Assembly: GCA_042584585.1 (NCBI GenBank)
Contig: JBHOSQ010000002.1
Location: 57,808 to 121,807 of the forward strand
Length of the DNA stretch: 64,000 nucleotides
Origin: an archaeon
GTDB lineage: Archaea; B1Sed10-29; WALL01
Direction of reading: 5' to 3'
Shown: in pieces, positions 22,258 to 45,191 of the stretch
How positions within the stretch are numbered: the stretch's first letter is position 1
How the letters are laid out: each line of letters opens with the position of its first letter
Program-made: the position numbers and the translations under genes
Notes under the pieces: model-generated
What the model saw: the letters and a program-made list of their open reading frames with translations, nothing else
The model's database searches: none
What the model was told of the DNA's origin: nothing

Positions 22258-25200
22258 ATGGATTTGAAAACTATTTATTCCCAACTGGAAGAAAAGTGGT
22301 ACGGCCTTCTTGACGCAATAGACTCGAAAGGCATTCCTGTGTACAAGGCCATCGACCCCATCGAAAACGCGGGCATTCCGTCGCTGCCGCTTGTGGCTGG
22401 CATATTGATTGTGTTCATCGCAATCGCTGCCTACATGATGAGCGGGGCCGCGCCGGACCTGGTTGGGGGCGACTATGTTGTCACAGTGCTCGACACTGAC
22501 GGTAACGCGATAAAGGGCGCGACAGTCGCGATGATAGTCGACGCGGATGCTGTGGCGGAAGAAAACACTAATTCCAGGGGCGAGGCATACTTCAGCCTCG
22601 ACGCCAACAAGGAATACCAAGTGGAAGTCACTACGGACTTATGCGGCAGGGAAGTCGACTTGTTCGACACCGCCGACATGGACTCCATTGAATTAACAGT
22701 CGAATGCGTTTCACCGGAATTCGCGGGCTGTTCCTCACTCGGCGAGGACAAGCTCGTGACCCAGCTCGCGGACGACCAAAACAACCTCCCCGCGGCATGC
22801 ACCATGCGGGTATACGACTCACAGAACGAGGCCATCGACCACCCGTTCAAGGTAACGAGCAACGGCGAGCTCGACATCTCGGGAAGCGGCAGCTGCCCCG
22901 AGGACAACAACCGGGCACTCATCGACTGCCAATACCACAAGTGGGAAGGCACGGTCTCCGGGATGTACAACGAGCTGCAATTGTTCGGCCAGCTGACCCT
23001 AGTGGTCAAGGAAGACGTCCAGCCCGAAACCCCGGTCTACCTCCCGCCAGTCGAAATAACGCGTGACATTTACGTCAAGGTCCAGAACACACAGGGCACC
23101 CCCCTCGAGGGGACGGCCGTCTCAATCGTTGACTCCAACGGAGACCCGCTGCCGCTTCTGCTCGCGGGCGTGGTCGGCGAGGCAATCACTGACGCCACCG
23201 GAAGCGCAAAGCTCGTGCTCCCCGACCAGCAAGAGTTCCACGTGCACCTTGAGGACGCCAACGGCGCGTACCAGCCGTACACGTCTGCGTCGTCGTACAA
23301 GGCAACGCTCACCCAAACACAAAACCAAATCATACTCAACATGGCCAATGGGTTCGAAACCACCATCTACGTGAAGGAAGAGGCGCGGCAGACCGCAATC
23401 GCGGACGCCACGGTCACCGTAATGCGCGACGACAAGGTCATCTCCCAGGGCACGACCAGCAGCGGCGGCTCGTACAAGGTTAGCCTGCTCCAGTCGGCAC
23501 AGTACCAGGTCGACGTGACGCACCCCCAGTTCTTCGCTGGGACTGCAACGGTCACCGGCGCACTCGACCAAAGCGTCTTCATGTCGCCCATCGACGCGAC
23601 CAAGACCGGCACCATCATCGTGGACACGTTCACCGCGACCGGAGTGCAGGAAGAGTTCCCGCAGGTTCGCCTCCAGCTCTACTCCAAGGACGCGAACAAC
23701 ACGCGCTGGATGAGCTGCATCACGCCCGGCAACGGCAGGTGCGTGTTCAGCAAGGTCAAGCAAGGCACTTACTACATCACCGCGACCCCGCCCGGAGCAA
23801 TCTCGGAACAGTCGTTCCCAGCGTTCCAGGTAGTCGCACAGAACACAACCGTCCAGAAAATCAGCGTCATGCCAAACCAATTGACGCTCACCGTGCTCAC
23901 CGAAGTAATGCTCAGCGGCGACGCCGTGCGCAAAAAAGACGTTGAGGTGACGCTGTGGAACGCGGACTACAACGAGCCCGTCGACACCAAGGAAAGCGGC
24001 ACCACACGAAAAGTCGATTTCACGCTGGACCAGGGCACACGGTACTTCCTCGTGGCCGAATACGTCGACACCCAAACCGGCACCAAGTACGGCCCGGTCA
24101 AGACCAGCGCCACGACCATGACGCAGCACAGGAAGACAAGCATCACGCTCACCCGCGTCTCCGAAGAAGTAGACGTCACCACTCCGTTCGAAATCGAGAA
24201 GGGCACCGAAGCCACGCTCACCATGCGGATGAGCCTGCCCGAGTACAGGCCCAACCAGCCGTACGAGTCGGCGACCATGGAAATGTTCTTGGGGGATCCG
24301 GGCAGTGTCCAGGACATCAAGCGCACCCCGTTCGTCATCCAGCCAATCCACTTGAGTGACGTCTCGTCGCAGGAACCGTTCGTCGCATCCGTCGAGAAGG
24401 CGGACGAATACCAGTACGAGTCCGAGCCAAAGCCAGACAACGACGGCGTCTCGAAATACATCAAGATCACAATCGGCCACTACACGCAGCCGACGACTTA
24501 CACAGTTGACATACCCGTGTACGCAAAGGCACTGGCGTCCAGCGGCGAAGTCAAGATAAGCTACCGCGCGACGTGGACAGCCGGCGGCGAAGAAGTCACG
24601 AGCAACGAAGGCCTGTGGGCAGAGAAAACAGTGTCACTGGTCGGCGACAGCGAGGCAGACACCGCGCTGGAAACAGGCGACTTCTATTCCTACGAGGCGT
24701 ACTTCTCGAAGCAGCTCGCCGGCGGCTCAATCCTAGAGCCGGACGTGCCCAACGGCTCGCCGTTCTACCTGCACGTCAAGGCCAAGGCCCGCTCCGCAGT
24801 CCAGTCGTGGAGCGTTGACGCAAACAACCTGCCCGACAAGGCAGAGGCTGTTGCCTATTCCGGCAGCATCAAGCGCGCCGCCGGGGGAACTGTCGAAATC
24901 GCGGAGTTCGCGCTGAGCGGCTCTGACTTTACCATTACCAATTCCGAAGAGGCGTACGGCCTAGAGAAAGACGACGAGCTCACACTTGTCGTGGCACTCC
25001 GCGCCAAGGAGCGCGGCAAGGGCACGCTCACACTGTTCGGTGACTACGACAACTCCTTGTCGTACGAGGTCACGCGCGAGGCGCGCGTTGGCACGACCCC
25101 AATCGCGGGCGTCGAGGCAATGATTGTAGCGTCGTCCAACTTTTGCATCCCCGGCTATGACAACGGAGACGAAAGCGGAAACTCGTGCTACATGGACTAC

Positions 25201-28200
25201 CCGGAGGGCGAGACCCTGCCGACCAACAACAAGGACTTCAGGCTGCAACTGTCATTGACCGGCGAGGCCAGCGCAAATGTTCTGGTCGAGGCGGCGGACT
25301 CCACCATCAAGTTCGCGGACACACAGGCCAATTATTACGAGACGACCGTCGACACGCCGAAGACCCTGCTCATCGAGGGGCACGGCACGTCTCTCACCGA
25401 CAACCTGATGAGTGTCTACATCTGGGAGGCCGGCGGCACCAAGCCAACGGCTCCAGCGATGACCGTCGTGTACGGCCCGGTGGACTACCGGATGCTCGTG
25501 ACCCCGTTCAACACAGGCCTTGCAGAGCTAGGGGTCAGCGAGACGACCGACGAAATCCAAGTGAAAATCATGAAGGGCACCCTTGGCACAGAGCAGACCG
25601 TCACTGCGGACGCGGAAGTCCAGGTGCTCACCGGCACAAGCAGCGGCGCCGCGGCGCTGGTGCTTAGCGCAGAGCCGTACTACAAATACACAGTTGACCC
25701 ACTCCTGCCGCCGCAGAGCGAGGAAGGGGTCAGCATCACGGCGGACAGCCCGTACTTCGGCAGGCTCGAGTACGAGTCCGGTGTCTCAGGCCTTGAGTTC
25801 ATTCCCAAGTTCCCCGCGCTCATGTTCGAGAAAGACGTGTTCGCGCTGGGCGACACACTCAACGACGAAGTGGAAATCAAGAGCACGTGGGACGAGCCAG
25901 TGCACGTAACCATGAACAGGCTTGAGCGCGATGGCTGGGACATACTCATGACCGTTGCCACGTTCTCTTCGAGCAACGTGCCGCTCGACACGAAGAGCGG
26001 GACCGGCATCGGCGAGGGCATTGACATTCCCGCCGGTGGAAGGGCAGAAATCAATCTTGCCGCGACCGCGAAAAGCACGCGCTGCAGGCTAGAGCTCACG
26101 CCAACCATCCTGGAGCTTGAGGTGGACAAGGTCGCGGCAACGCCGCACTACACAGTTGACCTCAAGTGCCAGATTGACGAGGGCGAGATGCCGTCGATTG
26201 ACGCGGTCGGCGTCGGCCAGTACGTGGCGCGGGAAGACCTGCCGCCCGGAAAGATAACGGCGGACTCGTGTGCCGTGGCATCGGACGGCGACTACGCGTT
26301 CGTGTGTGACGCCGAGCAGCTGAGCGTCGCGATTGCCAAGGCGGCGGACGCATTGTTCCTCGACCCGTCCATCATCAGTGACGCGCAGTTCTACGCGTTC
26401 GGCAACGACGAGTTCGGCGCGGCGATAATGGACACCGCGGTAAACGAGAACACTGCCGAGGCAGGCATCCAAGCGATTGACAACGTGTTCAACAAGGAAA
26501 GTGCGGCCGTGTCGTCGACGAGCAACGACCTCTGGCTTGTGGGCGATGCCGAGTGCGGCATTGTGCAGGTGACGCTCGAGAAGATGAACCTTGACGAAGA
26601 CATCAAAGTGACTTTCACCATGGACAACAGCAGCACCTGGTGCAATGACGCGAGCTCGCACTACATCATGGGGCTCATGAACTACGACAAGACCCTGCGC
26701 CCGGACTTCGGGAGCTACATGTCTTTCCAGGGCGAGGCACAGTTGTTCCTGGACGCAATCGCGAAGGCCAAGGAGCAGGGCAATGACATTGACGCGACCC
26801 TGATATTCGGCCACGACGCCTACAACACGCAAAAGCGCACGGGCCAGGAGGCCATGACCTTCTTCACTTACCAAGAGTGCGAGAAGGGCGACTCCAGCGA
26901 CTGCCCGACGTTTGCGGCGAAGCGCGTGAGCGACGACTTCCCAGTAATCGGATACTACCACGTGACCGACCGGGACGACATACTGATTGGAATGGTTTAT
27001 GACGAAGACAAGATTGTGGGCCCGGGCGGGGCTTACACCTTAATACCCAAGTATAGGATGGCGTTCGCCAAGGCCATGACTATTTACTTCACGACTGGCT
27101 TGACCGACGGCTGGGGCGTTGAGAACTCGGGCTGGCCAGTGTTCAACAAACAGAATTTCCAGATGACCATGAGCCCGGCGCACTACGGGTTGGCAGACCA
27201 ATTGATTGACCTCACGGGCCCAGTGCTAAGCGACTTTAAGATTTACGGTTACACGCCGTTCATGGAAGGCAGGCAGGAAAGCATGGTTGGGAGCAAGGAC
27301 GTTGACATCGAGTTCGTCGTCACTGGCGACCCAGACGTGTGTTTCATCTCGAACCTTGACGCGAGCGGCCAGGCAATCCAGGAAATCCCGTCCGCCGAGT
27401 TCCTGCATCAGGGCAGCTACCAAGTGCTTTCGATGCCGTGGGAGCTTATGGAAGGAAGTGGATTGAAGTGGGTTAGCGCGTACTGCGTGAACGAGTTTGG
27501 AATCCCATCGCACAAGCTCAGGGCGAACATAACTCTTGACGACAGCAAGATGAAGCTCGTGCGGCCATTGCCAAGAATAATCACGACCAACAAGGCAGTG
27601 ACTTCGGTGCCGACGACCAAGGACTGGACCCTTGAGGTTCGGGACAGGTACTCGCCGCTGCAGTTCTGCCAGCTGAAGCTGCCTGATGGCACCTATGACA
27701 ACATCGAGGAGTGCGACGACAACAACGACGGCAAGTTTGAAGACACGGTTGACACCGTGGATAATAACAACAACGGCGTGCCAGTGAGCTCGGACAATCC
27801 GTCCGGCCCGAGGGTGATTGAGAAAACAGACATAGCCTCATACCTCGACGGCTGCTGCAAAATTACACCCAAGTCCGTGCCTGGAGAGGCGGGGTATTAC
27901 TTCATCGACGAATTGACGTGCTGGTCGCCGTTCATCACCGAGATGGACGCGGCAACTGAAGTCGAGCTGGAGTGCAGAGACGAGAGCGGCAACACCGAGT
28001 CGCTTGGCACTGTCAGCATCTGGAGGTACAGCGACGACAAGCCTGACTTCGAGGTGCCGGAAGACTTCATCATGAGCACGGACTACGACTTCAAATACCC
28101 GCAGGACCGGCAGATGCAGCCGTCGGACAGCACATTCCACTTCAACTTGCCGGACATGCCTTCGGGCGCGGAAGGAAAAGCAGTATTTGGCGACTTTGAG

Positions 28201-29901
28201 CTAGAGCCGGTTGACGGTGGGCTCTGGAGCCCAGAGGGAGGCATGTTCGAGTACTCGTTCACAGTGTTCGACATGGACGGATTCGACCCGAGCGGGCCGT
28301 GTGAAGTTGACTTCGAACGCTACACTGTAGACGCCGCAAACGCATTCAGCCCGGACACACCATACCCATGCACTGGCGAGCCAACCGAACCTGGCTCACT
28401 GCGTGAACAGCGCGTGACGTGTGAGATGCCCCTCTTAAAAGACTACATCAATAGGGCATCCATCACGTGCACTGACCTAAGCGCGGGCGGCGGCAAAGAG
28501 GCAACGAAGTCGTTCGAGCTCACGTGGGACGAGAAGCCCGCGGAAGTGCTCGACGCCTCGTTTGACATGGAGGCACTGGGAGTAGGCCGCATGGGGGGCG
28601 GACGCGCGATTAATCCGGAGATTTTCTTTGACGTCCAGGACGACTACTCGAACGTGGAGTCTTGTAAAGTCGAGATTGGCACTCGCGCGACCATTGAAGA
28701 CGCTTTCTTCGAGTACGCTTGCGAGCTGCAGGACAAGCTCCGGTCGGACGGAAACACCTACGGTGGAACCTACAAGCACGCCGTGTGCTCGCCAATCGAC
28801 AACAGCACTGTACACTCGGCGATGATAAGCTTCCACGAGGACTCACTCAAGGTAACTTGCACCGACGAGGTCAAAAACCTCAAGAAGGAGACCATCAACA
28901 AGTGGGACGGCGGCATCAAGACCCCAACGATTGACAACATGTACCAGGACCTCATAGACATGTGCCGCATGGTTAGGGACAAGTCCTCGGCAGAAGAGAT
29001 TGAAGCAAAAGGCTACATCGACCTCGGCGACAAAGCAGGCTCAATCAAGTTGGACGACGGGTTCGGCTCGGACGACATTGACGAGGACGGCGTTGCCTAC
29101 GTCATGGCGTACCAAGCAACCGATAAGGATTATCCGGACCATGTCAAGAACTGGTGGCAAGATACGTTTGATAGCCCGTGGGCAAAAGAAGACATCGCAG
29201 AATATGTCGGTAGCGAAACAAAGACCATGGAAATCGGGAGGTCCGCCGAATGCGCGACTGGAGGAGCTGTTGACGTATTGATACTCGGAACAATGCTGGC
29301 CACCGGTGGAACATCAACACTAACATGGGAAGCGGCTAAGCAAGAAGCACAAATATCGGTAAGACACGCCATGGCTTGGGCCGTGAGCACGGCAGCGAAA
29401 ACAACATTTTCAACCACTGGGGCGGCTAATCTGGCGCGATACTTGGTTGTAGCCACAGTGCAAGGATACGCTACCCCAATACAAAAGAACTTAGTGGATG
29501 TGGGTATGGAATCCGCCTTTGAAGACGACATGCAATCAGACGTAGCACTGGAGTGTAACGAAGAGCCAGGCATGACCGGAAGCGACATTGTGGAAGCACT
29601 CCCAGTTGTCCGGTTGCTGGGCGTTGGCATACCCGACGAATTCCAGGCGTTTGTGTGTGCGCCGGAAAAAGATGGGCTGAAGCCGAACCAACTATATTAC
29701 ATGGTGGCATCGGCCAAGAAGTTTGACTTCAGCGGTATTGGCTCAGACTCCGGAGGAGCCAGCGACGTTGTAACAGACGTTGTCTCGATAGCCCTAGACT
29801 CGTGCGACGATTTCGTGTGCGTCGTTGGGGTGGTTCCAATGGACCGGGGCGAGGGCCCGTCCTCGACCGCAGGCAAGGACCTCAACCCATCCAACGAGTA
29901 A
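22258..29901 (+). CDS. Giant surface protein 1 (2547 aa), N-anchored, with repeated carboxypeptidase-regulatory/Cna-like beta-sandwich domains
   Basis: Conserved leader + TM; VTVLDTDGNAIKGATV-type repeats; CDAEQ core; TTATATA at 22212. Confidence 0.85.
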   Translation: MDLKTIYSQLEEKWYGLLDAIDSKGIPVYKAIDPIENAGIPSLPLVAGILIVFIAIAAYMMSGAAPDLVGGDYVVTVLDTDGNAIKGATVAMIVDADAVAEENTNSRGEAYFSLDANKEYQVEVTTDLCGREVDLFDTADMDSIELTVECVSPEFAGCSSLGEDKLVTQLADDQNNLPAACTMRVYDSQNEAIDHPFKVTSNGELDISGSGSCPEDNNRALIDCQYHKWEGTVSGMYNELQLFGQLTLVVKEDVQPETPVYLPPVEITRDIYVKVQNTQGTPLEGTAVSIVDSNGDPLPLLLAGVVGEAITDATGSAKLVLPDQQEFHVHLEDANGAYQPYTSASSYKATLTQTQNQIILNMANGFETTIYVKEEARQTAIADATVTVMRDDKVISQGTTSSGGSYKVSLLQSAQYQVDVTHPQFFAGTATVTGALDQSVFMSPIDATKTGTIIVDTFTATGVQEEFPQVRLQLYSKDANNTRWMSCITPGNGRCVFSKVKQGTYYITATPPGAISEQSFPAFQVVAQNTTVQKISVMPNQLTLTVLTEVMLSGDAVRKKDVEVTLWNADYNEPVDTKESGTTRKVDFTLDQGTRYFLVAEYVDTQTGTKYGPVKTSATTMTQHRKTSITLTRVSEEVDVTTPFEIEKGTEATLTMRMSLPEYRPNQPYESATMEMFLGDPGSVQDIKRTPFVIQPIHLSDVSSQEPFVASVEKADEYQYESEPKPDNDGVSKYIKITIGHYTQPTTYTVDIPVYAKALASSGEVKISYRATWTAGGEEVTSNEGLWAEKTVSLVGDSEADTALETGDFYSYEAYFSKQLAGGSILEPDVPNGSPFYLHVKAKARSAVQSWSVDANNLPDKAEAVAYSGSIKRAAGGTVEIAEFALSGSDFTITNSEEAYGLEKDDELTLVVALRAKERGKGTLTLFGDYDNSLSYEVTREARVGTTPIAGVEAMIVASSNFCIPGYDNGDESGNSCYMDYPEGETLPTNNKDFRLQLSLTGEASANVLVEAADSTIKFADTQANYYETTVDTPKTLLIEGHGTSLTDNLMSVYIWEAGGTKPTAPAMTVVYGPVDYRMLVTPFNTGLAELGVSETTDEIQVKIMKGTLGTEQTVTADAEVQVLTGTSSGAAALVLSAEPYYKYTVDPLLPPQSEEGVSITADSPYFGRLEYESGVSGLEFIPKFPALMFEKDVFALGDTLNDEVEIKSTWDEPVHVTMNRLERDGWDILMTVATFSSSNVPLDTKSGTGIGEGIDIPAGGRAEINLAATAKSTRCRLELTPTILELEVDKVAATPHYTVDLKCQIDEGEMPSIDAVGVGQYVAREDLPPGKITADSCAVASDGDYAFVCDAEQLSVAIAKAADALFLDPSIISDAQFYAFGNDEFGAAIMDTAVNENTAEAGIQAIDNVFNKESAAVSSTSNDLWLVGDAECGIVQVTLEKMNLDEDIKVTFTMDNSSTWCNDASSHYIMGLMNYDKTLRPDFGSYMSFQGEAQLFLDAIAKAKEQGNDIDATLIFGHDAYNTQKRTGQEAMTFFTYQECEKGDSSDCPTFAAKRVSDDFPVIGYYHVTDRDDILIGMVYDEDKIVGPGGAYTLIPKYRMAFAKAMTIYFTTGLTDGWGVENSGWPVFNKQNFQMTMSPAHYGLADQLIDLTGPVLSDFKIYGYTPFMEGRQESMVGSKDVDIEFVVTGDPDVCFISNLDASGQAIQEIPSAEFLHQGSYQVLSMPWELMEGSGLKWVSAYCVNEFGIPSHKLRANITLDDSKMKLVRPLPRIITTNKAVTSVPTTKDWTLEVRDRYSPLQFCQLKLPDGTYDNIEECDDNNDGKFEDTVDTVDNNNNGVPVSSDNPSGPRVIEKTDIASYLDGCCKITPKSVPGEAGYYFIDELTCWSPFITEMDAATEVELECRDESGNTESLGTVSIWRYSDDKPDFEVPEDFIMSTDYDFKYPQDRQMQPSDSTFHFNLPDMPSGAEGKAVFGDFELEPVDGGLWSPEGGMFEYSFTVFDMDGFDPSGPCEVDFERYTVDAANAFSPDTPYPCTGEPTEPGSLREQRVTCEMPLLKDYINRASITCTDLSAGGGKEATKSFELTWDEKPAEVLDASFDMEALGVGRMGGGRAINPEIFFDVQDDYSNVESCKVEIGTRATIEDAFFEYACELQDKLRSDGNTYGGTYKHAVCSPIDNSTVHSAMISFHEDSLKVTCTDEVKNLKKETINKWDGGIKTPTIDNMYQDLIDMCRMVRDKSSAEEIEAKGYIDLGDKAGSIKLDDGFGSDDIDEDGVAYVMAYQATDKDYPDHVKNWWQDTFDSPWAKEDIAEYVGSETKTMEIGRSAECATGGAVDVLILGTMLATGGTSTLTWEAAKQEAQISVRHAMAWAVSTAAKTTFSTTGAANLARYLVVATVQGYATPIQKNLVDVGMESAFEDDMQSDVALECNEEPGMTGSDIVEALPVVRLLGVGIPDEFQAFVCAPEKDGLKPNQLYYMVASAKKFDFSGIGSDSGGASDVVTDVVSIALDSCDDFVCVVGVVPMDRGEGPSSTAGKDLNPSNE

Positions 29902-36000: not shown

Positions 36001-37591
36001 CGACGACATGGAGACGGGCGATGGCACGGAATGCAAGGACTATGACTCCAATACTCCAAACGGCTTCGTCGAGAAGGGCGACAGGTATTACGTGGACAGC
36101 GACGACGTGACCATCTCCGTAGTCGTGAGTTCGGACAACCCACTAATAGGATGCAGCCTCAAGCAAGGCGACACGGAAGCGTCGTGCGGCCTGCCAAAGT
36201 CGGGGAGCACGGACTACCTGCAGTATTATGACTGCAACACCAAGCAGCCCGGCATTGACTTGCTGGGCGACGGTGAGACCAAAGTCAGTGTCAAGTGCTC
36301 GCAGACCGGGACAGAAGAGCTCGCGGAAGTGGAGCTGCTGCCGTTCGTGGTCGACACCGAGCCGCCGACATGCAACATAATCGGCGGGGAGTATCCACAG
36401 GACTGGAGTGTTTACTTGGCCCCCTGGAAGTTTGCGAAAATCAGGGGGCAGTCCAGCAAGGCATACATCGGCGTGATGCCAGTGGACGACACTGGATGGT
36501 CCAAGGTCGTGTGCGGCGGGGAGACGTTCAAGCCAAGCGACTCCACGCGGAGCCACGAGTTCACGGTGATGAATACTATGACGGGTAGTGGGTACTGGGC
36601 TTCTGTCTCCAGCAGCGGAACCAAGCAGACCTTCACGGCAACGACAGACCGCCTGACAGAGGGTCAGGTGATAATGAAGTGCACTGGAGATGACTGCCGC
36701 ACGATAATGGTGAGCGTGAAGTTTACGGACCCAGAGAGTGGCGAGAGTCTGGGTAGCTCGACGAGCATAGGCGGGAGCGGCAAGTGCAGGAACTTCGAGC
36801 CCATGCTCAAAGCCTCCGAGCAAGCAGTGACTCCGGGGAAAGAGTACCAGCTTAAGATTGAGGGCGATTCGTGGGAGTACTACAACGTGCCAGGTGACTA
36901 CTACACTGGCGGGAAAAGCATCGGTAGCCGGGACATTGAGGCGATTATTTACGGGACTGTGCCAGTCGAGTTCGACCTGTGGGAGCTATATCCAGAGAGC
37001 GACGGCACAATCAGCTGCACCGCCTATGACTTTGTTGGCCACAGCAATACATGCACCCAGAAGTACACGACAAAGATACTTGACAGTGCTGACGACTGTT
37101 CTAAAAGGTACGATGTTGGCAGCGACACAAAAGACTGGAAAAAGACCAAGCTTGACGCGTTCGAGGCGTACGCCATACGCTATGCATTCAACAGCGAGGA
37201 CGGCCTGTGCAACATAAACGGTGGTGTCGACTGCTATATATCAGAGTTCAACCCGTTCACCGGCGAAACAGAAAGCGGCTGGGGCAAGATCCTCTCGTCG
37301 ACAAAAGAGATGCCGCCCACGAACAACCGGAAAGTCTATGCATACCAGTACAAGGGCGTGTTCTTCTTCGGAGATGAATACGACGAGGAAAGGTTCTTTG
37401 CAACGGGGAATGGGGGCAGGATGCGGGTCCGCACATATACTGATGCCATTACTGATCTCACTGGCATAACGCCCTGCAGAAATGAAATAGACGAAGAAGA
37501 CTTCTTGAGCGGGGACGAGAGCAACATGAGAATATACTACGCCGTTCCAGGGTGCTATACTGAAAGGAGCATAGCCAACTATTACTGTTAG
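30047..37591 (+). CDS. Giant surface protein 2 (about 2510 aa), paralogue with thrombospondin type 3-like Ca-binding repeats
   Basis: Same leader; DCDRDGIPDAQDLDNDNDGIFDVEDFDIDGDG at about 30809-30930; CDAEQ core; TTTATATA at 30016; true start may be GTG 30056. Confidence 0.85.
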   Translation: MLIVDAGQITAIYKQVETKWYSLLDALSDKGVPVYKLVDPIENMGIPSFPLFVGGLIVLLALVAFLLIGGAGGPALTVTVTSGGAPLAGATVIAGDYEATTNEDGIAGLDHPGEGIDIQITKENCEAQVTTLTGTEATLEFDLICREAPPVGACSTISKEYDAIVMVGEDNAPLEDCVIIALNGGDPMETGWGADGNTLFLDDATCLQEDHQIQITCLGHERTLFIDELRNEIEEKGEITLNKRGSSGASTGQGDCDRDGIPDAQDLDNDNDGIFDVEDFDIDGDGVTNALDADTCGQDTREDAYSPTDVPGLVDLPVGTQAQQTFNSYVTVVADTGEKLDGIRVTATDVKGTKLSTGYANTVVEATTANGSATLSLPEGQKYYITAEDSNDVYRSAKSGLLTQNRQQEVKLVMQKGFLTVITVVSDRAVPYATVRVLDDPQMERQTSKIGQAIFVLVKGIDYDVEVVHENYIPLKTKVVGGSETEIRLEALDASNSGDVTATVRNAQGIEEGFPSVLLELVDSKNIVVKKCTTPASGMCQFTKAMAGDYTLRATPPGEISYTESKKFTVVAGESVDHEMLIDPAEAEIDVLTTIDGNPTKGVTVTLYDLSYGVPEKLSAQKSAENRRVKFNSYRGKKVYLEAEYRGALGEFGPLTTAPFTLTGNKDMELDLKEITRSVSLELPTGGEIAPGQIHYAKLVLELPYASEELKETYDKAMAEVWFGEPGDKSNPLKSPVLIGPIDSYIFEQQEKPNVLVSVGNSYTFNQEVIVGDSGTTSKIARFTVSDYDPTLYEIELPMLARREAQGDVTVRYRATWTDDDGRVFTSHGGEWAEDTLTVLAGDDDDDADWVETTGDFGLWNAFLSADPSIEEEQGAEETGEEEDELAASFFPDGGETNVEEDGVPSFTSGSLAFLHVRAIAAQETDTYVIKVDSFPPIGSGDKHMAPLAYRGVINKAGGKSRIVYPTTLAGDLPITFSPTQQSKDYYALDVDDEIHLVVAMRPQDATPLAEVAVFNDMENTLPYRVKQVGEGFEPTDIPNVEGNIMIKTLICPSPPYIGECGEGETTVNETLPSYDADRTEGRDFTIKIELRNKDSVDKNMKMRVDATGIEGLEYEDDALLTGNSGETLSITGKGASAGGGEIKIFIWLDGMEESEWKSIKHSAVKYKLEVVATGDDGKSFQEGELNTHAAEIEVAAVRETWGEASEEITTGITTVGHADAIRLSKDSVEAWARLAQDMSGNKKFTTAPDELDLDWGMLTVQAGHPEFRWLERSYEVHGSLIDPVTSEYGFTLTDFEPFEFRYAVITNNWDEEIKVTVAKDRWESTVFGEEYGLSHELRVVDAMGTERDVEDSYRLTRNVPARGKAELWILAAPPGDGCKIAPSLNKLSVTAATTLTKSEGGVVEDEGAYEINFTCAMEGGPAPAGDMATGIVMKVGYQPADITPDSCTTSDDVTYICDAEQFSVAVLKSAKELTDGHSQAIRKVLALSDDVVNSLVIATARQENSLSKGYPVDVTSSASTARDGSLILTQDEITCGLVTILFEKLTDEKIKATIEEVNSSMPWCAGGSGSFLGILNYDKNLRKEADTDVLLQYAEFAPDTDVTEFRAAVAAITTEKYVFGHMNPTTPDVKGKAAKHVVYYDEFTADEFKQVGIRDPMYSWLTQDYDTTGYFNINDKGDVQLGIIYESADNLERNRECMVYNLLTYWSLGDSSVLDGIGNEEETFDLSTCEMEGTLAAPPGVSLRLDATTPEYKVGASSTGDPEIALYITSDIKAEACYVWNGHDENPDKSIKKFVSQEGVFEVEAGQVVWDGYTLQVPSWDLKPGADSRAYTVKAACISDVGIWSERVSKQIIYDATPPEIVIVSTEDNGVTKKEAVKISFTASDKYAIRECSIEGVCPEFLIDTDCTLPAEAPVNEMGNKVYTVTDCVTPLLKLNGDIKDTCSPSGYNQLKLTCTDEHDNTASVEKNVYRLATTQAGIVPPTCDDMETGDGTECKDYDSNTPNGFVEKGDRYYVDSDDVTISVVVSSDNPLIGCSLKQGDTEASCGLPKSGSTDYLQYYDCNTKQPGIDLLGDGETKVSVKCSQTGTEELAEVELLPFVVDTEPPTCNIIGGEYPQDWSVYLAPWKFAKIRGQSSKAYIGVMPVDDTGWSKVVCGGETFKPSDSTRSHEFTVMNTMTGSGYWASVSSSGTKQTFTATTDRLTEGQVIMKCTGDDCRTIMVSVKFTDPESGESLGSSTSIGGSGKCRNFEPMLKASEQAVTPGKEYQLKIEGDSWEYYNVPGDYYTGGKSIGSRDIEAIIYGTVPVEFDLWELYPESDGTISCTAYDFVGHSNTCTQKYTTKILDSADDCSKRYDVGSDTKDWKKTKLDAFEAYAIRYAFNSEDGLCNINGGVDCYISEFNPFTGETESGWGKILSSTKEMPPTNNRKVYAYQYKGVFFFGDEYDEERFFATGNGGRMRVRTYTDAITDLTGITPCRNEIDEEDFLSGDESNMRIYYAVPGCYTERSIANYYC

Positions 37592-37671
37592 GGGGCACCA
37601 AAGCCCCCCCCTTATTTATATACTGTTTGTCATTAATTGTTGCAATCGGTTACTTATAGAGGGTAATATAA

Positions 37672-40600
37672 ATGGGCTTCTATTCTGAACTTGAAAAGAA
37701 ATGGTATAAATTGGTGGAGTCACTGGACAAGAAAGGAATTCCAATCCGTGCAATCACAGACCCCATCGAGACCGCTGGGCTGCCGAGCCTCCCCGTCGTC
37801 GCCGGCGTTGGGCTCGTGCTTTTGGCACTCGTGGCGTTTACGCTGCTGCCCGCCCAGGGAGCAACACTGATGCTGCAGGTCACTTCGGACGGCTCGGCCG
37901 TCGAAGGGGCTGAAGTCGCCGCCATGTTCGGGGACACCGAAGTGTTCTCGACCACAGGGCCAGACGGCTACGCCGAACTAATGCTTCCGTTCAACCAAGA
38001 AGTGGACTTAAGCATTACAAAAAGCGGGTGCGACACCCGCGCCGACTCCGTTTTGCTTGAGCAAGACGACGAAATCGAGATGAGTTTGAGCTGCAAAGGA
38101 AGCCCATCCTTTGCCGCGTGCATAACCTCTGCCCAAGAAATCGACACCGTAACCCTCACCACGCCAACCGGCGCCTACGCAAAAGGCTGCACGGTCGGCA
38201 TAAGGAACTCTGACTACAGCGCAGCCGACCTCGGCTGGCTCGTCAGCGGCAAAAAGCTTTTCATGACGTACAGCGCCGACAACTGCCCGCAAGAAGGGCA
38301 AAGCGTCGACATTTCCTGCAACGACTATAGTTACAGCGCGGACATGGAAGATTTCATCAACGACGCGCAGAAAGACCTGGAAATAGCGCTCGTCGAAGAA
38401 GACGATGACTACTACGCGGCTTCCGCCGCGGACCGGGTCTACACCGCCACTGTCCACGTCAAGGGCGCTGGCTCAAGCCTCAAGGGAATCCGCGTCAGCG
38501 CCACCGACGGCTCTGGAAACGCGCTTTCGTTCACTTACTCCAACATAATGCTCCAGGCCACCACCGGCACGGACGGCATTGCCATGCTCGTGATACCTGA
38601 GAACACTGTGTACTACATCAACGCAGAAGACACGGGAACGTCCTACGCGACCAAGATAAGCGGGTCGTACATCGCGACTGAAGACAAGACGATTAACGTC
38701 GAGCTCGAGAAAGGGTTCGAGACCCTGCTGACTGTGCTTAACATGAACGATAACTCGGCAGTCCCCAACGCATACATTGATTTGCTGCTGGATGACGTGC
38801 AGGTCGCGTACGGGTTCAGTGACAGCGGCGGAAAGGCCAAGTTCAAGCTCGAGAAGGCGGACTACACCGCGAAGGTGTCGAAGGCCAACTACGTCATGAC
38901 CTCGGTCGACTTTGTCGGCGGGACAAGCAACACACAAATACTGCTTGAGCCGCTCGACGACACCAACTCCGGATTCCTCAACGTCGAGGTAAAGAACGCG
39001 CACGGCGTCGGCGAGCCAATCGAGGGAGTCAAGGTAAAGCTGTTCAGCGGCGACGAAGAAATCAAGCACTCGTACTCCAACGACGACGGCCTCGTCAGCT
39101 TCGGCCGCATCAAGGCGGGGAGCTACACAATAACCGGCGAGGAAGAGGGCAGTGACACCGTCAGCGTGACCATCGTCGCGGGCGAGACCACCGACTCCGA
39201 CCTAACCGTCATTCCCCCGCAGGAAAAGCTTAAGGTATTCACCCAAGTCAACGGTGAGCACCAGAACGGGGTCGACGTCGAGATTTACGACATCACTTAC
39301 TCCGTAAACATTCCCACGCTGCTCGGCTCGTTTGTGTCTGGCACGAACCGCAGGGTCGAGTTCAGCTACGACAAGGGCAGCAAGCTCTACCTCAAGGCGA
39401 GCTTCACCAACCCGAACACCGGCGAAAAGTATGGCCCCGTCGTGTCCGCACCGATTGACCTGGACAACGACACGGAATACACGATTGACGTCACCGGCGT
39501 CAAGAACAACGTCGGCATCAAAATACTCAACGACGACAAGCAGGAGCACACCGGCTCGCTGGAAGAAGGCGGGAACTATTACGTGCAACTGGACGTCGGG
39601 ATACCTTACTACGACCCACAGAAAAAAGAGACGTACGACAGCGTTTACGTCGAGTTCTTCACCGGCGGAATCGGCGACCTCGAGGACATCGAGGCCACGC
39701 CGATACTGATCCGCAAGGTAACCGCCAACGACTTCGTGGTCGAAGACCCCGTGGTCGGGTCGATGGTGCTTTCCGACTCCTACGTGTACCACCAGGCAAA
39801 CTTTCCCGAGAGCACCGGCGCGTCCAAGTACATCCGGCTCGACATCATTGACTACAGCGAGGGATTGGTTTTCCCCATGCAGATACCCATCCACGTCCGC
39901 AGCAACGTGCAGGGCGAGAACAGCGTCATCAACTACCGCGTGTTCTGGAAGAGCCCTGAAGGCGCCGAGTTCGCGACGAACGGCGGGAAGTGGACACAGC
40001 AGCCAATCACGATAGACACCAAGACCAGCGGCTGGAGACTGCTGGACACGCACCCACACTTTTACTTTTACGACGCGTGGCTGTCCTACGACAGGGCGGG
40101 CAACAATGTCGCGGCCAGCTGGGCGACCACGAGCCACGCAGCTGCCCCGGAGTTCGCGGAAGGCAGCGCGTTCTACCTGCAGGTGAGAGGTAAGGCAAGG
40201 GTGCCGACCAACAACTACGGCGTCGAAATAAGCGCGATGCCGCAGGCCGGCTACCCGTACGCCATTCCCACCAGCTACTCGGGAAGCATTGTGCGGACCA
40301 ACGGCGTTGTGCAGGAGATTTTCCCGGCAGACGCCATCAGCATCAACGAAATCAGCCCGGCGTCCGGCTCGCAGGGCCTGGACTACTCGCTTGACGCGGA
40401 CGACGAGCTCCGCCTCGCAATCCGCATGGAGACGCGGCTCAAGGCAGAAGGCGGCGTCGGCGAAGACGCCCCAGTTGAAATCGCGGTGTTCGATGACTAC
40501 GGCAGGCAGAAGCTGTTGCTGAACGTTCGCAGCCTCAAGCCGAGCGAAATAACGCCGGTCTCAAACCTCATCGCGACGCAGGTGGTTGGCAGCCTCATCG

Positions 40601-43600
40601 AAGGGGTGCCGCGCGTCTACGACCACAGCGAAGAAGTTATTCCGTCTTACCACGTGCCGGAGTACGGCTCGACAGAGGGCAGGGTGTTCGGCGCGCTGCT
40701 GAGCTTCAACAACAGTGACCAGAACGACAAGAGCCTCAAGTTCATCATCCAGGACGAGCACAAGACAATTGACAACAAAGTGCCGTGGGCAAGGTTTTAC
40801 AAGCAGGCGCTCCCGGTGTACATCGACGCGGACTTTGCGGCGGAATGGCCGTTCATGTCGGAGAAGCAGGCGTTCATCCTTGGGCACACGACCGCGACGC
40901 ACTGCGACAATTTGACCATCGCAATAACGGAAGAGGCCACGGAACTAACAACAACGAAGATCAACTGCACGGTCGAGAACAACGAGTTCGCGTTCGACTT
41001 CGTGCCGACCGGAGTGGGCTGGCACACGGTCAACGTCGGCATTGACGTGCCGACACTGGACGGCAAGTCACAGGTGTACGAGGACGAGATACGCATCTAC
41101 GTCACGAACCTGCCAGAGATGACGGCCACCGCAAGCGCGGCGGCTTCGGTCAGGGAAGGGCAGAACATCACCATCACGGCAACGGTCTACAACACGGACC
41201 CCACTTACGCGACCACGATACTCAGCTACACCGGCAGCTACGGGAACCTTGACCCCGAGCAGAAGACGTCACTCGAGCCGCGGGCGTGGATATCCATTGG
41301 GACGAGCCACATCGCGACGGCGGCACTGGATGTAATTCAGCCGAGCACGAGCACGAAGATTGACTTCGTGTGGGAGGCGACCGGCGGCGGGCCTTTGACC
41401 GCCACGGTGTGCGCGGGATACTTCAAGTGGGACGGCGAGAGCTGGGACGTGCTTGAGGGAACGGAAAACTGTGACAACATCCCGATTGTCGTAAACGCCG
41501 AGGCAGACACCACGCTGATGGACCTGGGCATTGAGATGGACCTCAACGCGACGACCCATTACAAGGTGGACCTTGACACTGTCACTCTTAACGCCACAGT
41601 CATTAACCACGGCGAGAACTACACCACTTCGGACTTTGGTTTGAGTGTGTACATGTGGGTCACCAACGAAGAAGGGTTCCCCGAACTGAACAGTGCGCAC
41701 ATTGGCGGCGCCGAGGGGCTCAAGAACGGAACCAACTACACGGTAACCAAAGAGATTAACATGGAGGCGTTCGACTATGGAGTCTACACTGTCACGGTGT
41801 GCGCGGTGTACGACGACTACGAGGGAAGCACCTACGCGGACGGCGGCGGGGAGCCGGAGTGCGCGAGCCAGTCGTTCACCATCGAGCGCGAGCCGAGGGA
41901 CTCGTACGAGGGAGAAAAGACGCTTGACATATTCGGCGGCAGCAATAAACAAGAAGAAGACACTGCGTCGACAACAGGTAACGTCAACATAAGATACTAC
42001 ATCGAGAACGGCGATTATGCAACTGCGCTTGAGAAGCTGCTGTTGATTGACCGCCAGGAAGAGCCGACCATAGAAAAGATTGAGTCGCCCGTATGGACGC
42101 TCAAGCCCGGCGAAAGCGACTGGACTTTCTTCATCGGCAAGGGAATGCTGGCCGTTGGCAATGATGACATCAGGAGCAAGACGTCGAACCTGGAGATTTA
42201 CCTGTTCGAGAGCGATGCCGATACCTCTGGCCTAGAGCCGTGGGAGCAGGGCTCGTTCAAGCACGGATGGGTAGACTACGACCTGGCTCTGACGGGGTAT
42301 GACGACGAGTACAACGAGGGGCTGGACATTTACGCGGCGTCTCTTGGGGCGGCGATAATCCGCAAGGACGCGGACAGCCCATGCAGCGTCAAGGACTACA
42401 AGAATTACCCACAGCAGCCACCACTCAGCTGGTACCTCCAGAGCTGCAATGTGCTGCCGGTCGACTCGGACACGGACAACTGGCTGCTCGCGAACGGGAC
42501 TGCGGTCGAGCACATCCTCAACAATCCGGGCGGGTACAGCAGCGACAACGACGCCAGCCACCTCGTGATTCCGTACCACAACGAGTACGACATGTTCCTG
42601 AGGTACTTGCCGGAGCAGATGCAGGCAAGGATTCACTCGGGCAACATAACCGTGTACGCGAAAGGCGACCGGTTCGTCGTCGAGAAGACGTTCACTGTGT
42701 CCGGCGTTGACATCAAGCCAGCAACGCACACGTTTGACTTCACTGACGAGACCGCGGCCGGGAACAATTACGCGCAGAAGAGGGTGCAGCTGACGGTCAG
42801 CAACCTCGGGGACTCTGAAATCGAGATCGAGAAGATTGTGTGGAACCCGTCATCCGTCGCGCAGACCTATAACCTTGGCGTGAACGCAATCGGCTCGTAC
42901 GACAAGTTCGACTACAAGCAGCTGGACCCGTTCAAGATTCCGTCGGAAGGCATTGGGTACATCGACGTTACTTCGACGCCGTCGGTGGAAGTGTGTAAGG
43001 GCGAGACGACGGCTGGGCTCGAGATTTTCCTGGTCGACGAGGAAGTGCCGTGGAAAGTGGTGTTCAGCCTCAAGTGCCCGGGGATTGCAGAAGAAGACGT
43101 GGGCGCGGCTGCGGCGCAGCTAGTGTACAAGGAAAAGATTTCCCCCGACGCAATCAGCACGAGCCCACGCGCTTGTGAAGTGAGTGAGAGCGGCGGGAAC
43201 GAAATCGTGCGGGTGTGCGACGCGGAACAGTTCACAATGGCTGTACTGCAGGACGCGGCCGACGGGGGCAGGACACAGGCAGTGTATGCGCTCGGCGAGG
43301 AAGAAGTCACCGCGACAGTTATGGACAACGCAAGGGCGGCGCATGGGTTCACCAAGCTGAAGGACGTGATGCTGATTGGCCAGATGAGCACCGGCGACAC
43401 AAACCAGAAGCAGGCCTGGCTCGACAACGAAAACATCGGGTGCGGCAAGGTCATTGTCAGTTTCGAGAAACTCAGTGGGAGCAAGGGCGGCGACGAAGAC
43501 AAAGACGTCTTGATTACTCCTGTGACCGTTACCACGAACGCTACGTGGTGCGCGGGCGGCAGTGACGGCGACCATGCGGTCGCAATCGGGCTGCTCAATC

Positions 43601-44796
43601 TTGACGGCGCGTTGCGGCCGGACCAGGGCAGCGGCGTGCAGTACACTGGCTTCAGCGGAATGGACAAGTTCTTGACCGCGATGAACAACGCGGTCACGAA
43701 GGGCAGGCTAATTGTTGGGCTGCCGGACGTGTTCGGCTACGCCGGGACGAGCCCGAGCGAGGTGGACACTGAGTTCAGCGCTGACTACGACTACCGAACG
43801 CACACGTTTGTCTACAAGGACTGGCACGCCAGCGAGCTCGTGTCAAGTGACTGGGTGTGGCTGAGGGACCAGGTGACCGTGAATAACCCGGTTGTGCATT
43901 ACACCCAGATTGTTGATGACGTCAGCAGGGGCGGTAAGATTGTGCGGCTTGGTTTAGCTTACAACGACGCGGGCGTAAGTGCGTCCACGCTGCAGCAGCA
44001 CAGGGAAGACCTTGCGGTTGACCTTGTCAACTCGTGGACAGGAGCATCAATCGGGACTGCAGTCTGCGGCAAAGGCCACACGAAGGTGACCGGCCACACG
44101 GCGGCGTCTGGAAGCTGGTGCGAGGTCAGGATATATGGCTTGCCGATGGATGGTTACATCACTCGCCAGCAGCTGAAGCCGCCACACATACCTTTCACAG
44201 AAGTCATGAAGGAACCGGTCGGCACAAGTGTTAACGCAGACAGTGACTTTGCGATGGCCGGCCAGCTTTGTTATTGGACGGCAAGCGGGAATTGGATATA
44301 CGAAACGTACAAATCGTTTGTCTATTTCGACGCGGCCAGCGAGCTCGCCCCCAGCGCAAAAATCAAGTGGGTTGCCCTAGAGCTTTATGGCAAAGTCCCG
44401 CTCTACCAAGGACATGGCATACGGCCCGACTCTTCGATGCCTAACGACGAACGTGACGTGATGGTGCAGCGGGCGGTTAGCAACTGGAACCACCCCCGTG
44501 AGCCACTTGTGATCACGGACTTCAACTTCTTGCTTTATGACGAGACGACGGCCGAGCGGATGTGGGGTGGATGGAGCGCCTATAGTCGGAATGAGATACT
44601 TGACGTCCCTGAAAACACCGTGAACCGCAATGGCCTGACCAAGTTCGCGGTGCGGACAAGGGATGAATACTTGAGGGACCCAGTTCCCTGCCCAGGTGAT
44701 ACCCAAGGAACGAGCATAGGAGAAGTGATAAGCTTCTACACCTCCGAGGCTCCCGCAACCAAGCGGCCAGTCCTTGAAATCGCCTACGACCCGTGA
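37672..44796 (+). CDS. Giant surface protein 3 (2374 aa), paralogue with extra Ig/CARDB-like domains and a DNRLRE-like C-terminal domain
   Basis: Same leader; ITITATVYN and VTLNATVIN repeats; YKSFVYFD...IKWVALELY...FYTSEA...RPVLEIAY; TTTATATA at 37615. Confidence 0.85.
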   Translation: MGFYSELEKKWYKLVESLDKKGIPIRAITDPIETAGLPSLPVVAGVGLVLLALVAFTLLPAQGATLMLQVTSDGSAVEGAEVAAMFGDTEVFSTTGPDGYAELMLPFNQEVDLSITKSGCDTRADSVLLEQDDEIEMSLSCKGSPSFAACITSAQEIDTVTLTTPTGAYAKGCTVGIRNSDYSAADLGWLVSGKKLFMTYSADNCPQEGQSVDISCNDYSYSADMEDFINDAQKDLEIALVEEDDDYYAASAADRVYTATVHVKGAGSSLKGIRVSATDGSGNALSFTYSNIMLQATTGTDGIAMLVIPENTVYYINAEDTGTSYATKISGSYIATEDKTINVELEKGFETLLTVLNMNDNSAVPNAYIDLLLDDVQVAYGFSDSGGKAKFKLEKADYTAKVSKANYVMTSVDFVGGTSNTQILLEPLDDTNSGFLNVEVKNAHGVGEPIEGVKVKLFSGDEEIKHSYSNDDGLVSFGRIKAGSYTITGEEEGSDTVSVTIVAGETTDSDLTVIPPQEKLKVFTQVNGEHQNGVDVEIYDITYSVNIPTLLGSFVSGTNRRVEFSYDKGSKLYLKASFTNPNTGEKYGPVVSAPIDLDNDTEYTIDVTGVKNNVGIKILNDDKQEHTGSLEEGGNYYVQLDVGIPYYDPQKKETYDSVYVEFFTGGIGDLEDIEATPILIRKVTANDFVVEDPVVGSMVLSDSYVYHQANFPESTGASKYIRLDIIDYSEGLVFPMQIPIHVRSNVQGENSVINYRVFWKSPEGAEFATNGGKWTQQPITIDTKTSGWRLLDTHPHFYFYDAWLSYDRAGNNVAASWATTSHAAAPEFAEGSAFYLQVRGKARVPTNNYGVEISAMPQAGYPYAIPTSYSGSIVRTNGVVQEIFPADAISINEISPASGSQGLDYSLDADDELRLAIRMETRLKAEGGVGEDAPVEIAVFDDYGRQKLLLNVRSLKPSEITPVSNLIATQVVGSLIEGVPRVYDHSEEVIPSYHVPEYGSTEGRVFGALLSFNNSDQNDKSLKFIIQDEHKTIDNKVPWARFYKQALPVYIDADFAAEWPFMSEKQAFILGHTTATHCDNLTIAITEEATELTTTKINCTVENNEFAFDFVPTGVGWHTVNVGIDVPTLDGKSQVYEDEIRIYVTNLPEMTATASAAASVREGQNITITATVYNTDPTYATTILSYTGSYGNLDPEQKTSLEPRAWISIGTSHIATAALDVIQPSTSTKIDFVWEATGGGPLTATVCAGYFKWDGESWDVLEGTENCDNIPIVVNAEADTTLMDLGIEMDLNATTHYKVDLDTVTLNATVINHGENYTTSDFGLSVYMWVTNEEGFPELNSAHIGGAEGLKNGTNYTVTKEINMEAFDYGVYTVTVCAVYDDYEGSTYADGGGEPECASQSFTIEREPRDSYEGEKTLDIFGGSNKQEEDTASTTGNVNIRYYIENGDYATALEKLLLIDRQEEPTIEKIESPVWTLKPGESDWTFFIGKGMLAVGNDDIRSKTSNLEIYLFESDADTSGLEPWEQGSFKHGWVDYDLALTGYDDEYNEGLDIYAASLGAAIIRKDADSPCSVKDYKNYPQQPPLSWYLQSCNVLPVDSDTDNWLLANGTAVEHILNNPGGYSSDNDASHLVIPYHNEYDMFLRYLPEQMQARIHSGNITVYAKGDRFVVEKTFTVSGVDIKPATHTFDFTDETAAGNNYAQKRVQLTVSNLGDSEIEIEKIVWNPSSVAQTYNLGVNAIGSYDKFDYKQLDPFKIPSEGIGYIDVTSTPSVEVCKGETTAGLEIFLVDEEVPWKVVFSLKCPGIAEEDVGAAAAQLVYKEKISPDAISTSPRACEVSESGGNEIVRVCDAEQFTMAVLQDAADGGRTQAVYALGEEEVTATVMDNARAAHGFTKLKDVMLIGQMSTGDTNQKQAWLDNENIGCGKVIVSFEKLSGSKGGDEDKDVLITPVTVTTNATWCAGGSDGDHAVAIGLLNLDGALRPDQGSGVQYTGFSGMDKFLTAMNNAVTKGRLIVGLPDVFGYAGTSPSEVDTEFSADYDYRTHTFVYKDWHASELVSSDWVWLRDQVTVNNPVVHYTQIVDDVSRGGKIVRLGLAYNDAGVSASTLQQHREDLAVDLVNSWTGASIGTAVCGKGHTKVTGHTAASGSWCEVRIYGLPMDGYITRQQLKPPHIPFTEVMKEPVGTSVNADSDFAMAGQLCYWTASGNWIYETYKSFVYFDAASELAPSAKIKWVALELYGKVPLYQGHGIRPDSSMPNDERDVMVQRAVSNWNHPREPLVITDFNFLLYDETTAERMWGGWSAYSRNEILDVPENTVNRNGLTKFAVRTRDEYLRDPVPCPGDTQGTSIGEVISFYTSEAPATKRPVLEIAYDP

Positions 44797-44801
44797 ATGG
44801 T

Positions 44802-45191
44802 ATGATACAAGAAAAATGGGCCGGGATAGTTGACTCGCTCGCCGACAAGGGCGTGCCGCTTTATTTAGTGGCTGACCCACTGGACGACCACGGCATCCCC
44901 AGCTGGGCTGTTTTGGCGGCTATTTGGCTTGTTTTGGTGTTTGGCTTGGTTTTTGTGCTTTTTCCGGGTGTGAAGTATAGTTTAGACATCACAACAACGC
45001 CCGGAGCCAAGGTGCTCGTCACGTACGACGAAGCCCAGCTCACCAGCACAGCAGAAACCGGCACAGTAAGCTTTAAACTGCCGCTGGGAGCCGCCGCAAA
45101 CGTCAAAATCACGATGGCCGGGTGCGAAGGCGAATCCCTGGAAGTAGTGATGATTGACCACTACGAGTTCGAGAAAGAGCTAGTCTGTTGA
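44802..45191 (+). CDS. Mini-paralogue: leader + TM + one beta-sandwich domain
   Basis: EKWAGIVDSLADKGVPLYLVADPLDDHGIPSW; ITMAGC...LVC matches the first domain of the giants. Confidence 0.8.
   Translation: MIQEKWAGIVDSLADKGVPLYLVADPLDDHGIPSWAVLAAIWLVLVFGLVFVLFPGVKYSLDITTTPGAKVLVTYDEAQLTSTAETGTVSFKLPLGAAANVKITMAGCEGESLEVVMIDHYEFEKELVC

Follow-up and report, generated by a model that had tools for sequence, protein, structure and literature searches.

An acidic N-terminal leader shared by giant surface proteins and encoded within a pilus-type gene cluster in a class of archaea

We analyzed a 64,000-nucleotide stretch of archaeal DNA (GTDB lineage Archaea; B1Sed10-29; WALL01; positions 57,808 to 121,807 of contig JBHOSQ010000002.1, assembly GCA_042584585.1), hereafter called the window. 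Four consecutive open reading frames (ORFs) on its plus strand, at 22258-45191, encode three giant proteins of 2547, 2514 and 2374 amino acids (aa) and a mini protein of 132 aa, and all four start with a leader, some 40 residues long, ahead of a single membrane helix. Judged from its sequence and distribution, this leader is a module that has had no name so far and that stands at the N-terminus of giant surface proteins throughout the lineage. The reading that we favor, and to which we give roughly even chances, is that it is retained as a signal-anchor and that its knob of two acidic helices remains on the cytoplasmic side, where it would serve as a handle to the gene cluster in which the giants are encoded.

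Four tandem genes with a common leader

The first-pass annotation of the window had noted that these four tandem genes share an unusual N-terminal leader and transmembrane helix, and that the leader is much better conserved than the ectodomains. Both observations were borne out by alignment and by genome-wide scans. The genes are as follows:

22258..29901, plus strand: giant 1, 2547 aa; leader aa 1-44 (22258-22389), membrane helix about aa 45-62 (22390-22443)
30047..37591, plus strand: giant 2, 2514 aa from a GTG at 30047; leader ending at 30196, membrane helix 30197-30253
37672..44796, plus strand: giant 3, 2374 aa; leader aa 1-41 (37672-37794), membrane helix 37795-37848
44793..45191, plus strand: mini, 132 aa from a GTG; leader, membrane helix and one seven-stranded beta-sandwich

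The N-termini of the four proteins can be aligned over about 65 columns, and K13, W14, K24, G25, P27, D33, P34, G39, P41 and S42 are invariant in all four leaders. Leader identity to giant 1 is 55% for giant 2, 47% for giant 3 and 30% for the mini. The giants are paralogs with bodies just 26-30% identical over 950-1970 aligned residues; as far as these alignments go, the leader is clearly their best-kept part. A hidden Markov model (HMM) built from the four leaders had exactly four matches in the 1.02-Mb, 84%-complete genome (E from 2e-34 to 4e-31), and a 32-sequence HMM, applied in an unfiltered six-frame scan of 13,975 ORF segments, had four matches at E <= 9.3e-24 with the next one at E 1.7. 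Since the genome scans return these four copies alone, their likeness is far above chance.

The starts of two genes deserve comment. In giant 2, a GTG at 30056 is probably the true start, as it would give the Met-Asp-Ala-Gly beginning seen in giant 1. The mini, which lacks the first few leader residues, is deposited in the public record as a 129-aa hypothetical protein starting from an ATG at 44802. The TATA box that the first-pass annotation had assigned to each giant could be located, in the form of a TATA-like box recognized by eye, ahead of all three (TTATATATA at 22212-22220, TTTATATA at 30016-30023 and TTATTTATATA at 37612-37622) and ahead of these only: the ORF of the mini overlaps the stop codon of giant 3, which leaves it without a separate promoter. 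Downstream of giant 1 and ahead of the TATA-like box of giant 2 is a 14-nt palindrome (29937-29964, 93% complementary) with a T-rich run a few bases on; it is a possible terminator, and a simple terminator scan gave no call there. Among sequencing runs, none of RNA was listed for the sequence, and one DNA run contained just a small share of its sequence words.

Beyond the membrane helix, the giants have ectodomains with CarboxypepD_reg and Ig-like domains and 24-47 Cys residues; the Cys-containing ectodomain of giant 1 is acidic. Giant 2 carries at aa ~255-300 (window ~30800-30940) an Asp-rich segment of repeated Asp-x-Asp-x-Asp-Gly motifs, which by eye recalls the calcium-binding thrombospondin type 3 repeats. 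A weak sub-threshold match of TubZ-like_C to the same protein (E 0.0014) was regarded as noise.

Distribution of the leader

The first-pass annotation had proposed a search of archaeal proteomes with an HMM of the leader, and this search recovered a class-wide family. Of 31 genomes belonging to this class, 24 contain the leader, among them 11 of 11 with completeness of at least 90%; of 30 archaeal genomes from outside the class, one does (G051). Below, these 25 genomes with a leader in the genome-collection search, G051 among them, are referred to as leader genomes. A profile search of 1.84 billion representative proteins yielded 1047 matches at E <= 1e-3 and 439 at E <= 1e-10; the named records with a leader are titled Candidatus Iainarchaeum, Diapherotrites or Micrarchaeota metagenome-assembled genomes.

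The module is N-terminal in these proteins. In the best 150 of the 1047 representatives the leader match begins at protein residues 1-63, and the conserved Tyr, carried by 147 of 152 collected leader sequences, stands at residue 2-15 in 140 of the 147; the remaining sequences, with Tyr further in, look like over-long start calls. Eighty five of the 152 proteins have at least 1500 aa and 54 have less than 500 aa. Many of these shorter sequences seem to be giants truncated at contig ends. In the closest families, genuine minis (128-209 aa) are again found as the last gene of the giant array. Between distant giants of the class the leader alone is still recognizable, and distant giants match the mini and not the bodies of the giants.

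No known domain was found in the leader by the Pfam check that the first-pass annotation had advised: against Pfam and NCBIfam, the four whole proteins gave no leader match at E <= 0.1, and 32 isolated leaders searched at E <= 10 gave only stray matches of the membrane helix. A look-up in the ESM Atlas returned no usable match. We found no description of the leader in the literature, leaving aside the supplementary tables of the census of archaeal type IV pili (PMC4858521), which could list parts of the cluster.

Linkage of the leader to a pilus-type cluster

The first-pass annotation had connected the giants with a neighboring pilus-like machine and with small membrane proteins, and the comparison of genomes agrees with that. 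On the same contig and within 15 kb of a leader gene, 21 of the 25 leader genomes encode a mini archaeosortase, 20 of the 25 the orthologous secretion ATPase and 19 of the 25 the small membrane protein 45752-46114. In the exceptions, the genes lie on separate contigs of fragmented assemblies, where linkage is not assessable. In the assemblies with long contigs (G000, G002, G015, G020 and G051) every leader gene is found within this single locus, and no leader gene lacking the linkage was encountered in the contiguous assemblies examined. The small membrane protein 45752-46114 is present in 27 of 30 class genomes and in G051 and in none of 29 others, which is the same phyletic pattern as that of the leader. 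In the loci that were read, the order of sortase, large pilin-like protein, giant or giants and series of small proteins recurs across the class. Genome G019 has two identical copies of the ATPase-sortase-giant-small-protein region (G019:C1:79122-89488 and G019:C8:3333-13699) with equal scores, probably an assembly duplicate.

Six loci that were read from outside the class contain an orthologous ATPase and platform protein and have no leader giants, sortase or small proteins. The giants, the sortase and the small proteins thus make up an add-on to an older pilus-type core. The cluster in the window comprises, besides the four leader genes, the following features:

5605..10263, minus strand: large Sec-signal protein, 1552 aa, with a C-terminal Pro-rich motif, membrane helix and basic tail
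12452..14277, minus strand: pilin-like genes of 189, 152, 52 and 183 aa, with Arg-Gly-Gln class III-type starts in those of 189, 152 and 183 aa (by eye)
14278..16452, minus strand: polytopic platform protein, 724 aa, T2SSF/TadC/FlaJ-like, adjoining the ATPase gene
16415..18922, minus strand: FlaI/TadA-like secretion ATPase, 835-aa ORF
18754..19269, plus strand: mini archaeosortase/exosortase-family protein, 171 aa, first gene on the strand of the giants, diverging from the ATPase gene
19269..20084, plus strand: Lys/Glu-rich protein, 271 aa, no predicted membrane helix; homolog among close relatives only
20112..22208, plus strand: large pilin-like protein, 698 aa, with a class III-type start (basic residues, Gly, hydrophobic helix)
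45752-46114, 46111-46452, 46485-46748, 46758-47045, 47046-47402, 47404-47790, 47780-48148 and 48158-48667, plus strand: eight small membrane proteins
48664..49320, plus strand: secreted Cys-rich protein, 218 aa, with a C-terminal membrane helix; closes the conserved module

The ATPase matches NCBIfam FlaI with E 5.9e-39 and Pfam T2SSE with E 5e-19. Its ORF overlaps that of the sortase on the opposite strand, and since relatives align just from residue ~66-75, the true start is probably M69, which would leave a very short divergent intergenic region between the two genes. Pfam T2SSF matches 15 of 21 orthologs of the platform protein (best E 4.4e-9), the copy in the window being unmatched, and neither the sequence nor the profile of this protein retrieved anything relevant from the PDB. 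A homolog of the 698-aa protein stands between the sortase and a giant in most relatives.

The archaeosortase-like gene, which had been overlooked in the first-pass annotation, heads the operon of the giants. Its product scores 33.9 bits with TIGR04178 (cut-off 23) and 24.7 bits with Pfam Exosortase_EpsH, just under the cut-off of 25.7. C71, R113 and H133 are invariant in 17 orthologs. The AlphaFold2 model of the sortase has a predicted local distance difference test score (pLDDT) of 93.4, and a Foldseek search with it gave no match at E <= 0.001.

The order of the eight small membrane proteins is kept across the class, and Pfam and NCBIfam gave no match to any of them. Three of them (47046-47402, 47404-47790 and 47780-48148) are paralogs with two membrane helices and with tails containing conserved motifs of the Pro-Ile-Ile-Val and Tyr-Pro type; the mean charge of the last 75 aa in the three is +7.6, +6.3 and +2.4. 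The proteins 45752-46114 and 46111-46452 also look mutually related, as does the counterpart of 46485-46748, according to an iterated search in relatives.

Further downstream, a 150-aa coiled-coil protein (50003-50455, minus strand) and a 450-aa protein without a family (50588-51940, plus strand) follow the cluster in nearly all genomes of the class and in G051, and a weak relative of the former lies beside the ATPase in an out-of-class locus (L063). A family B DNA polymerase is encoded just beyond (52499-54763, plus strand; Pfam DNA_pol_B, E 6e-70).

Leader anatomy and predicted fold

The 152 collected leader sequences were used to count residues by column, with consensus numbering. Among the near-fixed residues are Tyr5 (142 sequences), Glu9 (148), Asp17 (147), Tyr27 (147), Asp31 (146), Glu34 (150) and Pro39 (151). 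To these the consensus adds Asp/Glu10, Lys11, an aromatic pair at 12-13, Leu19, Lys22-Gly23-(Ile/Val)-Pro25 and Pro32, and the leader ends in two often basic residues, Gly37, Ile38, Pro39, Ser/Thr, Phe/Leu and Pro42. Column 37 holds Gly in 128 sequences, Asn in 22 and a gap in two, the position being deleted in two giants of G051. Past the conserved Pro, an uncharged span of median 27 residues (range 19-46) follows in all 152.

The AlphaFold2 model of the mini, computed from 24 aligned sequences, has a pLDDT of 89.4. It consists of a helix at residues 2-18, a second helix at 24-32, a Gly-Ile-Pro turn and the membrane helix at 37-56, with the seven-stranded beta-sandwich beginning four residues on. 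In the model, Gly/Asn37 lies in the turn capping the membrane helix. A Foldseek search of the PDB with this model gave only weak matches to sandwiches of the transthyretin and carbohydrate-binding module type (best E 8.9e-4), with no pilin among the matches and none for the leader part.

The leader is acidic, its net charge averaging -2.8. Per 15 residues there are on average 1.43 Lys and Arg ahead of the helix vs. 0.85 past it; counted by sequence (n = 145), 78 have more of these residues ahead of the helix, 45 have equal numbers and 22 have fewer. This bias, together with the Cys-bearing ectodomains of CarboxypepD_reg and Ig-like type, suggests that the leader would lie in the cytoplasm and the C-terminal part outside (N-in/C-out).

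An uncleaved handle or a cleaved signal

In the scheme that we propose, two short acidic cytoplasmic helices would be joined by the tight turn Gly/Asn-Ile-Pro-Ser-x-Pro to one membrane helix acting as signal-anchor. The leader would stay on, and the giant ectodomain would be fixed in the N-in/C-out orientation. The knob would tie the giants to the co-encoded ATPase, platform protein, pilins, mini archaeosortase, large pilin-like protein and small membrane proteins with basic cytoplasmic tails. The candidate partners of the knob are the co-inherited small membrane proteins, three of them being paralogs with conserved Pro-rich strands; the acidic leader (-2.8) and the basic tails of two of these paralogs (+7.6 and +6.3) may be complementary in charge. 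A permanent anchor is favored because the hydrophobic stretch is long and because there is no conserved small-x-small site between the helix and the first domain of the minis. Retention of the leader, its topology and its docking to a partner are all deduced from these features and thus should be considered provisional.

Several observations weigh against this scheme. The two sides of the helix differ only mildly in positive residues, and each has a net acidic charge, so that the proposed topology depends mainly on the nature of the ectodomain. In comparison with out-of-class orthologs, the ATPase and the platform protein of leader genomes have no specific insertion, and no dedicated docking domain is visible in them; a leader-specific docking insert was sought in both proteins and none was found. 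Gly, Ala, Ser and Pro are frequent just past the helix, which is compatible with cleavage by signal peptidase I, and the strong conservation of the leader would also fit a transient targeting signal.

The last two points lead to the view of the leader as an extended Sec-type signal, in which the 40 residues would be an extension for targeting or pacing. After export, signal peptidase I would remove the entire N-terminus, helix included, and the giants would be held on the surface in some other way. The module is almost exclusive to very large exported proteins, and giant bacterial adhesins carry conserved N-terminal extensions of this kind (ESPR, YSIRK and KxYKxGKxW). ESPR is an extended signal of large autotransporters and of TpsA, while YSIRK and KxYKxGKxW are found in giant adhesins of Gram-positive bacteria, and some of these signals are tied to a dedicated export route. 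The leader resembles them as a conserved extension that precedes a hydrophobic export segment and is specific to very large surface proteins. It differs in being archaeal, in having no sequence relationship to them and an acidic two-helix fold instead of a basic n-region, in the anchor length of its hydrophobic segment, and in its association with a pilus-like cluster rather than with SecA2/Y2 or an outer-membrane transporter. The ESPR, YSIRK and KxYKxGKxW profiles were absent from the matches of the four proteins (E <= 0.1) and of the 32 leaders (E <= 10).

Other features also speak against a cleaved signal of this type. The uncharged stretch, with its median of 27 residues and never less than 19, suits an anchor better than a cleaved h-region. 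In three aligned minis the linker between helix and sandwich has 4-5 residues, with small residues at -1 and -3 in one of the three and Lys at -1 in the other two. No membrane helix is present at the C-terminal end of any of the three giants, which would thus be left with no other anchor. We consider an extended Sec-type signal unlikely. The first-pass annotation had stated that the leader does not look like a Sec, Tat, lipoprotein or class III signal, and this holds as far as layout, motifs and the absence of Pfam and NCBIfam matches are concerned: the n-region has ~40 residues, the uncharged span has the length given above, and the four leaders and helices, read directly, contain neither a twin-arginine motif nor any Cys that could belong to a lipobox.

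The class III part of this statement requires more discussion, as the leader could be a long prepilin-like signal that an A24 peptidase cuts past the conserved Gly, which would turn the Ile-Pro-Ser-x-Pro helix into an N-terminal helix of pilin type and the giants and the mini into subunits or tip adhesins handled by the pilus-like machine. Lys or Arg often stands just ahead of the Gly, and ~22 hydrophobic residues come directly after it, as in archaeal class III signals with their N-in helix; the cluster encodes a FlaI-like ATPase, a TadC-like platform and canonical class III proteins; the mini, once cut, would match a pilin in size and layout; and two A24 peptidase genes (PF01478) are present elsewhere in the genome (G000:C5:4285-4599 and G000:C3:97131-97472). 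A further secretion ATPase gene lies 3 kb from the first of these, the one on C5. However, prepilin peptidases require Gly or Ala at -1. Cleavage by such a peptidase is unlikely because the candidate -1 Gly is replaced by Asn in 22 of the 152 leaders, and the residue is missing from the two G051 giants. Moreover, the leader of 36-45 residues is acidic and folded, whereas archaeal class III leaders are short (~3-15 residues) and basic, and no pilin was matched by the model of the mini. On the strength of the model, Gly/Asn37 is read as a structural residue rather than a cleavage site. All in all, we regard a class III signal as quite improbable.

The mini archaeosortase suggests yet another possibility, namely that the leader is an N-terminal sorting signal whose Ile-Pro-Ser-x-Pro motif and helix are read by this enzyme. 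Sortases of this type read the PGF-CTERM and PEP-CTERM signals at C-termini. With these signals the leader shares a Pro-containing motif directly ahead of a membrane helix and a co-located sortase-family gene: in 18 of the 25 leader genomes a sortase ortholog is encoded on the same strand, 0.1-4 kb upstream, and in G013 and G017 it is the adjacent gene, at a distance of ~120-130 bp. The motif and helix of the leader also resemble a Leu-Pro-x-x-Pro-Glu motif and helix at the C-termini of neighboring proteins, with which they are aligned in register by hhalign, but at a probability of just 12.7%. In contrast to PGF-CTERM and PEP-CTERM, the leader is N-terminal, there is no basic cluster past the helix, where an acidic ectodomain follows, and the motif is presumed to be cytoplasmic, whereas the Cys, Arg and His of the sortase would lie near the outer face, according to the loop charges of the AlphaFold2 model.

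A more conventional substrate is available in the same cluster. The pilin operon encodes, at its far end, large Sec-signal proteins with a three-part C-terminal signal, in which a Pro-rich motif, commonly Leu-Pro-x-x-Pro-Glu, is followed by a membrane helix and then by a basic tail. The signal is also found at the loci of relatives (L041, L042, L043, L044, L045, L047, L054 and L058), and in G006 the sortase gene is directly upstream of a large protein with such a C-terminus. The 1552-aa protein is thus a likely archaeosortase substrate, and its ending, to judge by the sequence, appears to be a C-terminal sorting signal of a new kind, read by the mini archaeosortase. We believe that a role of the leader itself as sortase signal is highly improbable. 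In the part of the census of archaeal type IV pili considered here, sortases are not mentioned (PMC4858521).

Finally, the leader could be a plain topogenic anchor without a partner, a fast-folding acidic knob that blocks the crossing of the N-terminus and forces the N-in/C-out orientation on a very long chain. The confident prediction of the monomer without a partner and the lack of a partner-specific insertion in the ATPase and the platform protein agree with this. However, the near-invariance of E9, D17, D31 and E34 (146-150 of 152) exceeds the needs of folding, and the module is never found outside the cluster in the contiguous assemblies examined. An anchor of this simple kind seems very unlikely to us.

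An uncleaved cytoplasmic handle would have analogs in machines of related type. Bitopic proteins of type IV pili and type II secretion systems dock by a cytoplasmic N-terminal peptide: PilN to PilM and GspL to GspE. In the proposed topology, the giants share the layout of these proteins, with a conserved N-terminus that is short and cytoplasmic, a single membrane helix and an extensive outer part, and like them they are encoded beside a secretion ATPase and a platform protein. There is no homology between them, however; the outer part of the giants is an adhesin-like ectodomain of 2,300-2,500 residues, and no PilM- or GspL-like partner was identified.

Significance for DPANN archaea

DPANN archaea live attached to other cells, and the building of their contact surface is largely obscure. 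The tiny archaea considered here are probably host-dependent. The leader is a compact sequence tag for the giant surface proteins of a whole class, genetically tied to a pilus-type motor, a mini archaeosortase and small membrane proteins, and its HMM can be used as a search handle for giants in fragmented metagenomes. A candidate attachment apparatus of ~25 genes is thereby defined.

Giant membrane-associated surface proteins are also represented in DPANN archaea by the SPEARE-type giants of Nanohaloarchaeota, to which the part of the report considered here ascribes a Sec signal peptide along with an ATPase domain of the VirB4/TraG-like type, and for which a function in host contact is proposed (PMC10266531). 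The giants reported here differ from the SPEARE proteins, as portrayed in that part, by the new leader and by having no VirB4/TraG-like domain. As for pilus loci, a review of microbial dark matter, in the portion considered, says merely that some of those in DPANN archaea hold unrecognizable components.

A bolder extension of our proposal, which we put forward as an improbable speculation, is that through the leader as a handle the giants are coupled, on the cytoplasmic side, to an archaeal attachment apparatus not described before, in which the small membrane proteins together with the ATPase and platform would position, insert or mechanically act on the giant adhesins, and that the leader would represent a dedicated sorting code read in the cytoplasm. 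This raises the question whether archaea, like bacteria, route very large adhesins by special N-terminal codes. If the leader is indeed a docking handle, it would constitute a new way to couple surface proteins to a type IV filament machine.

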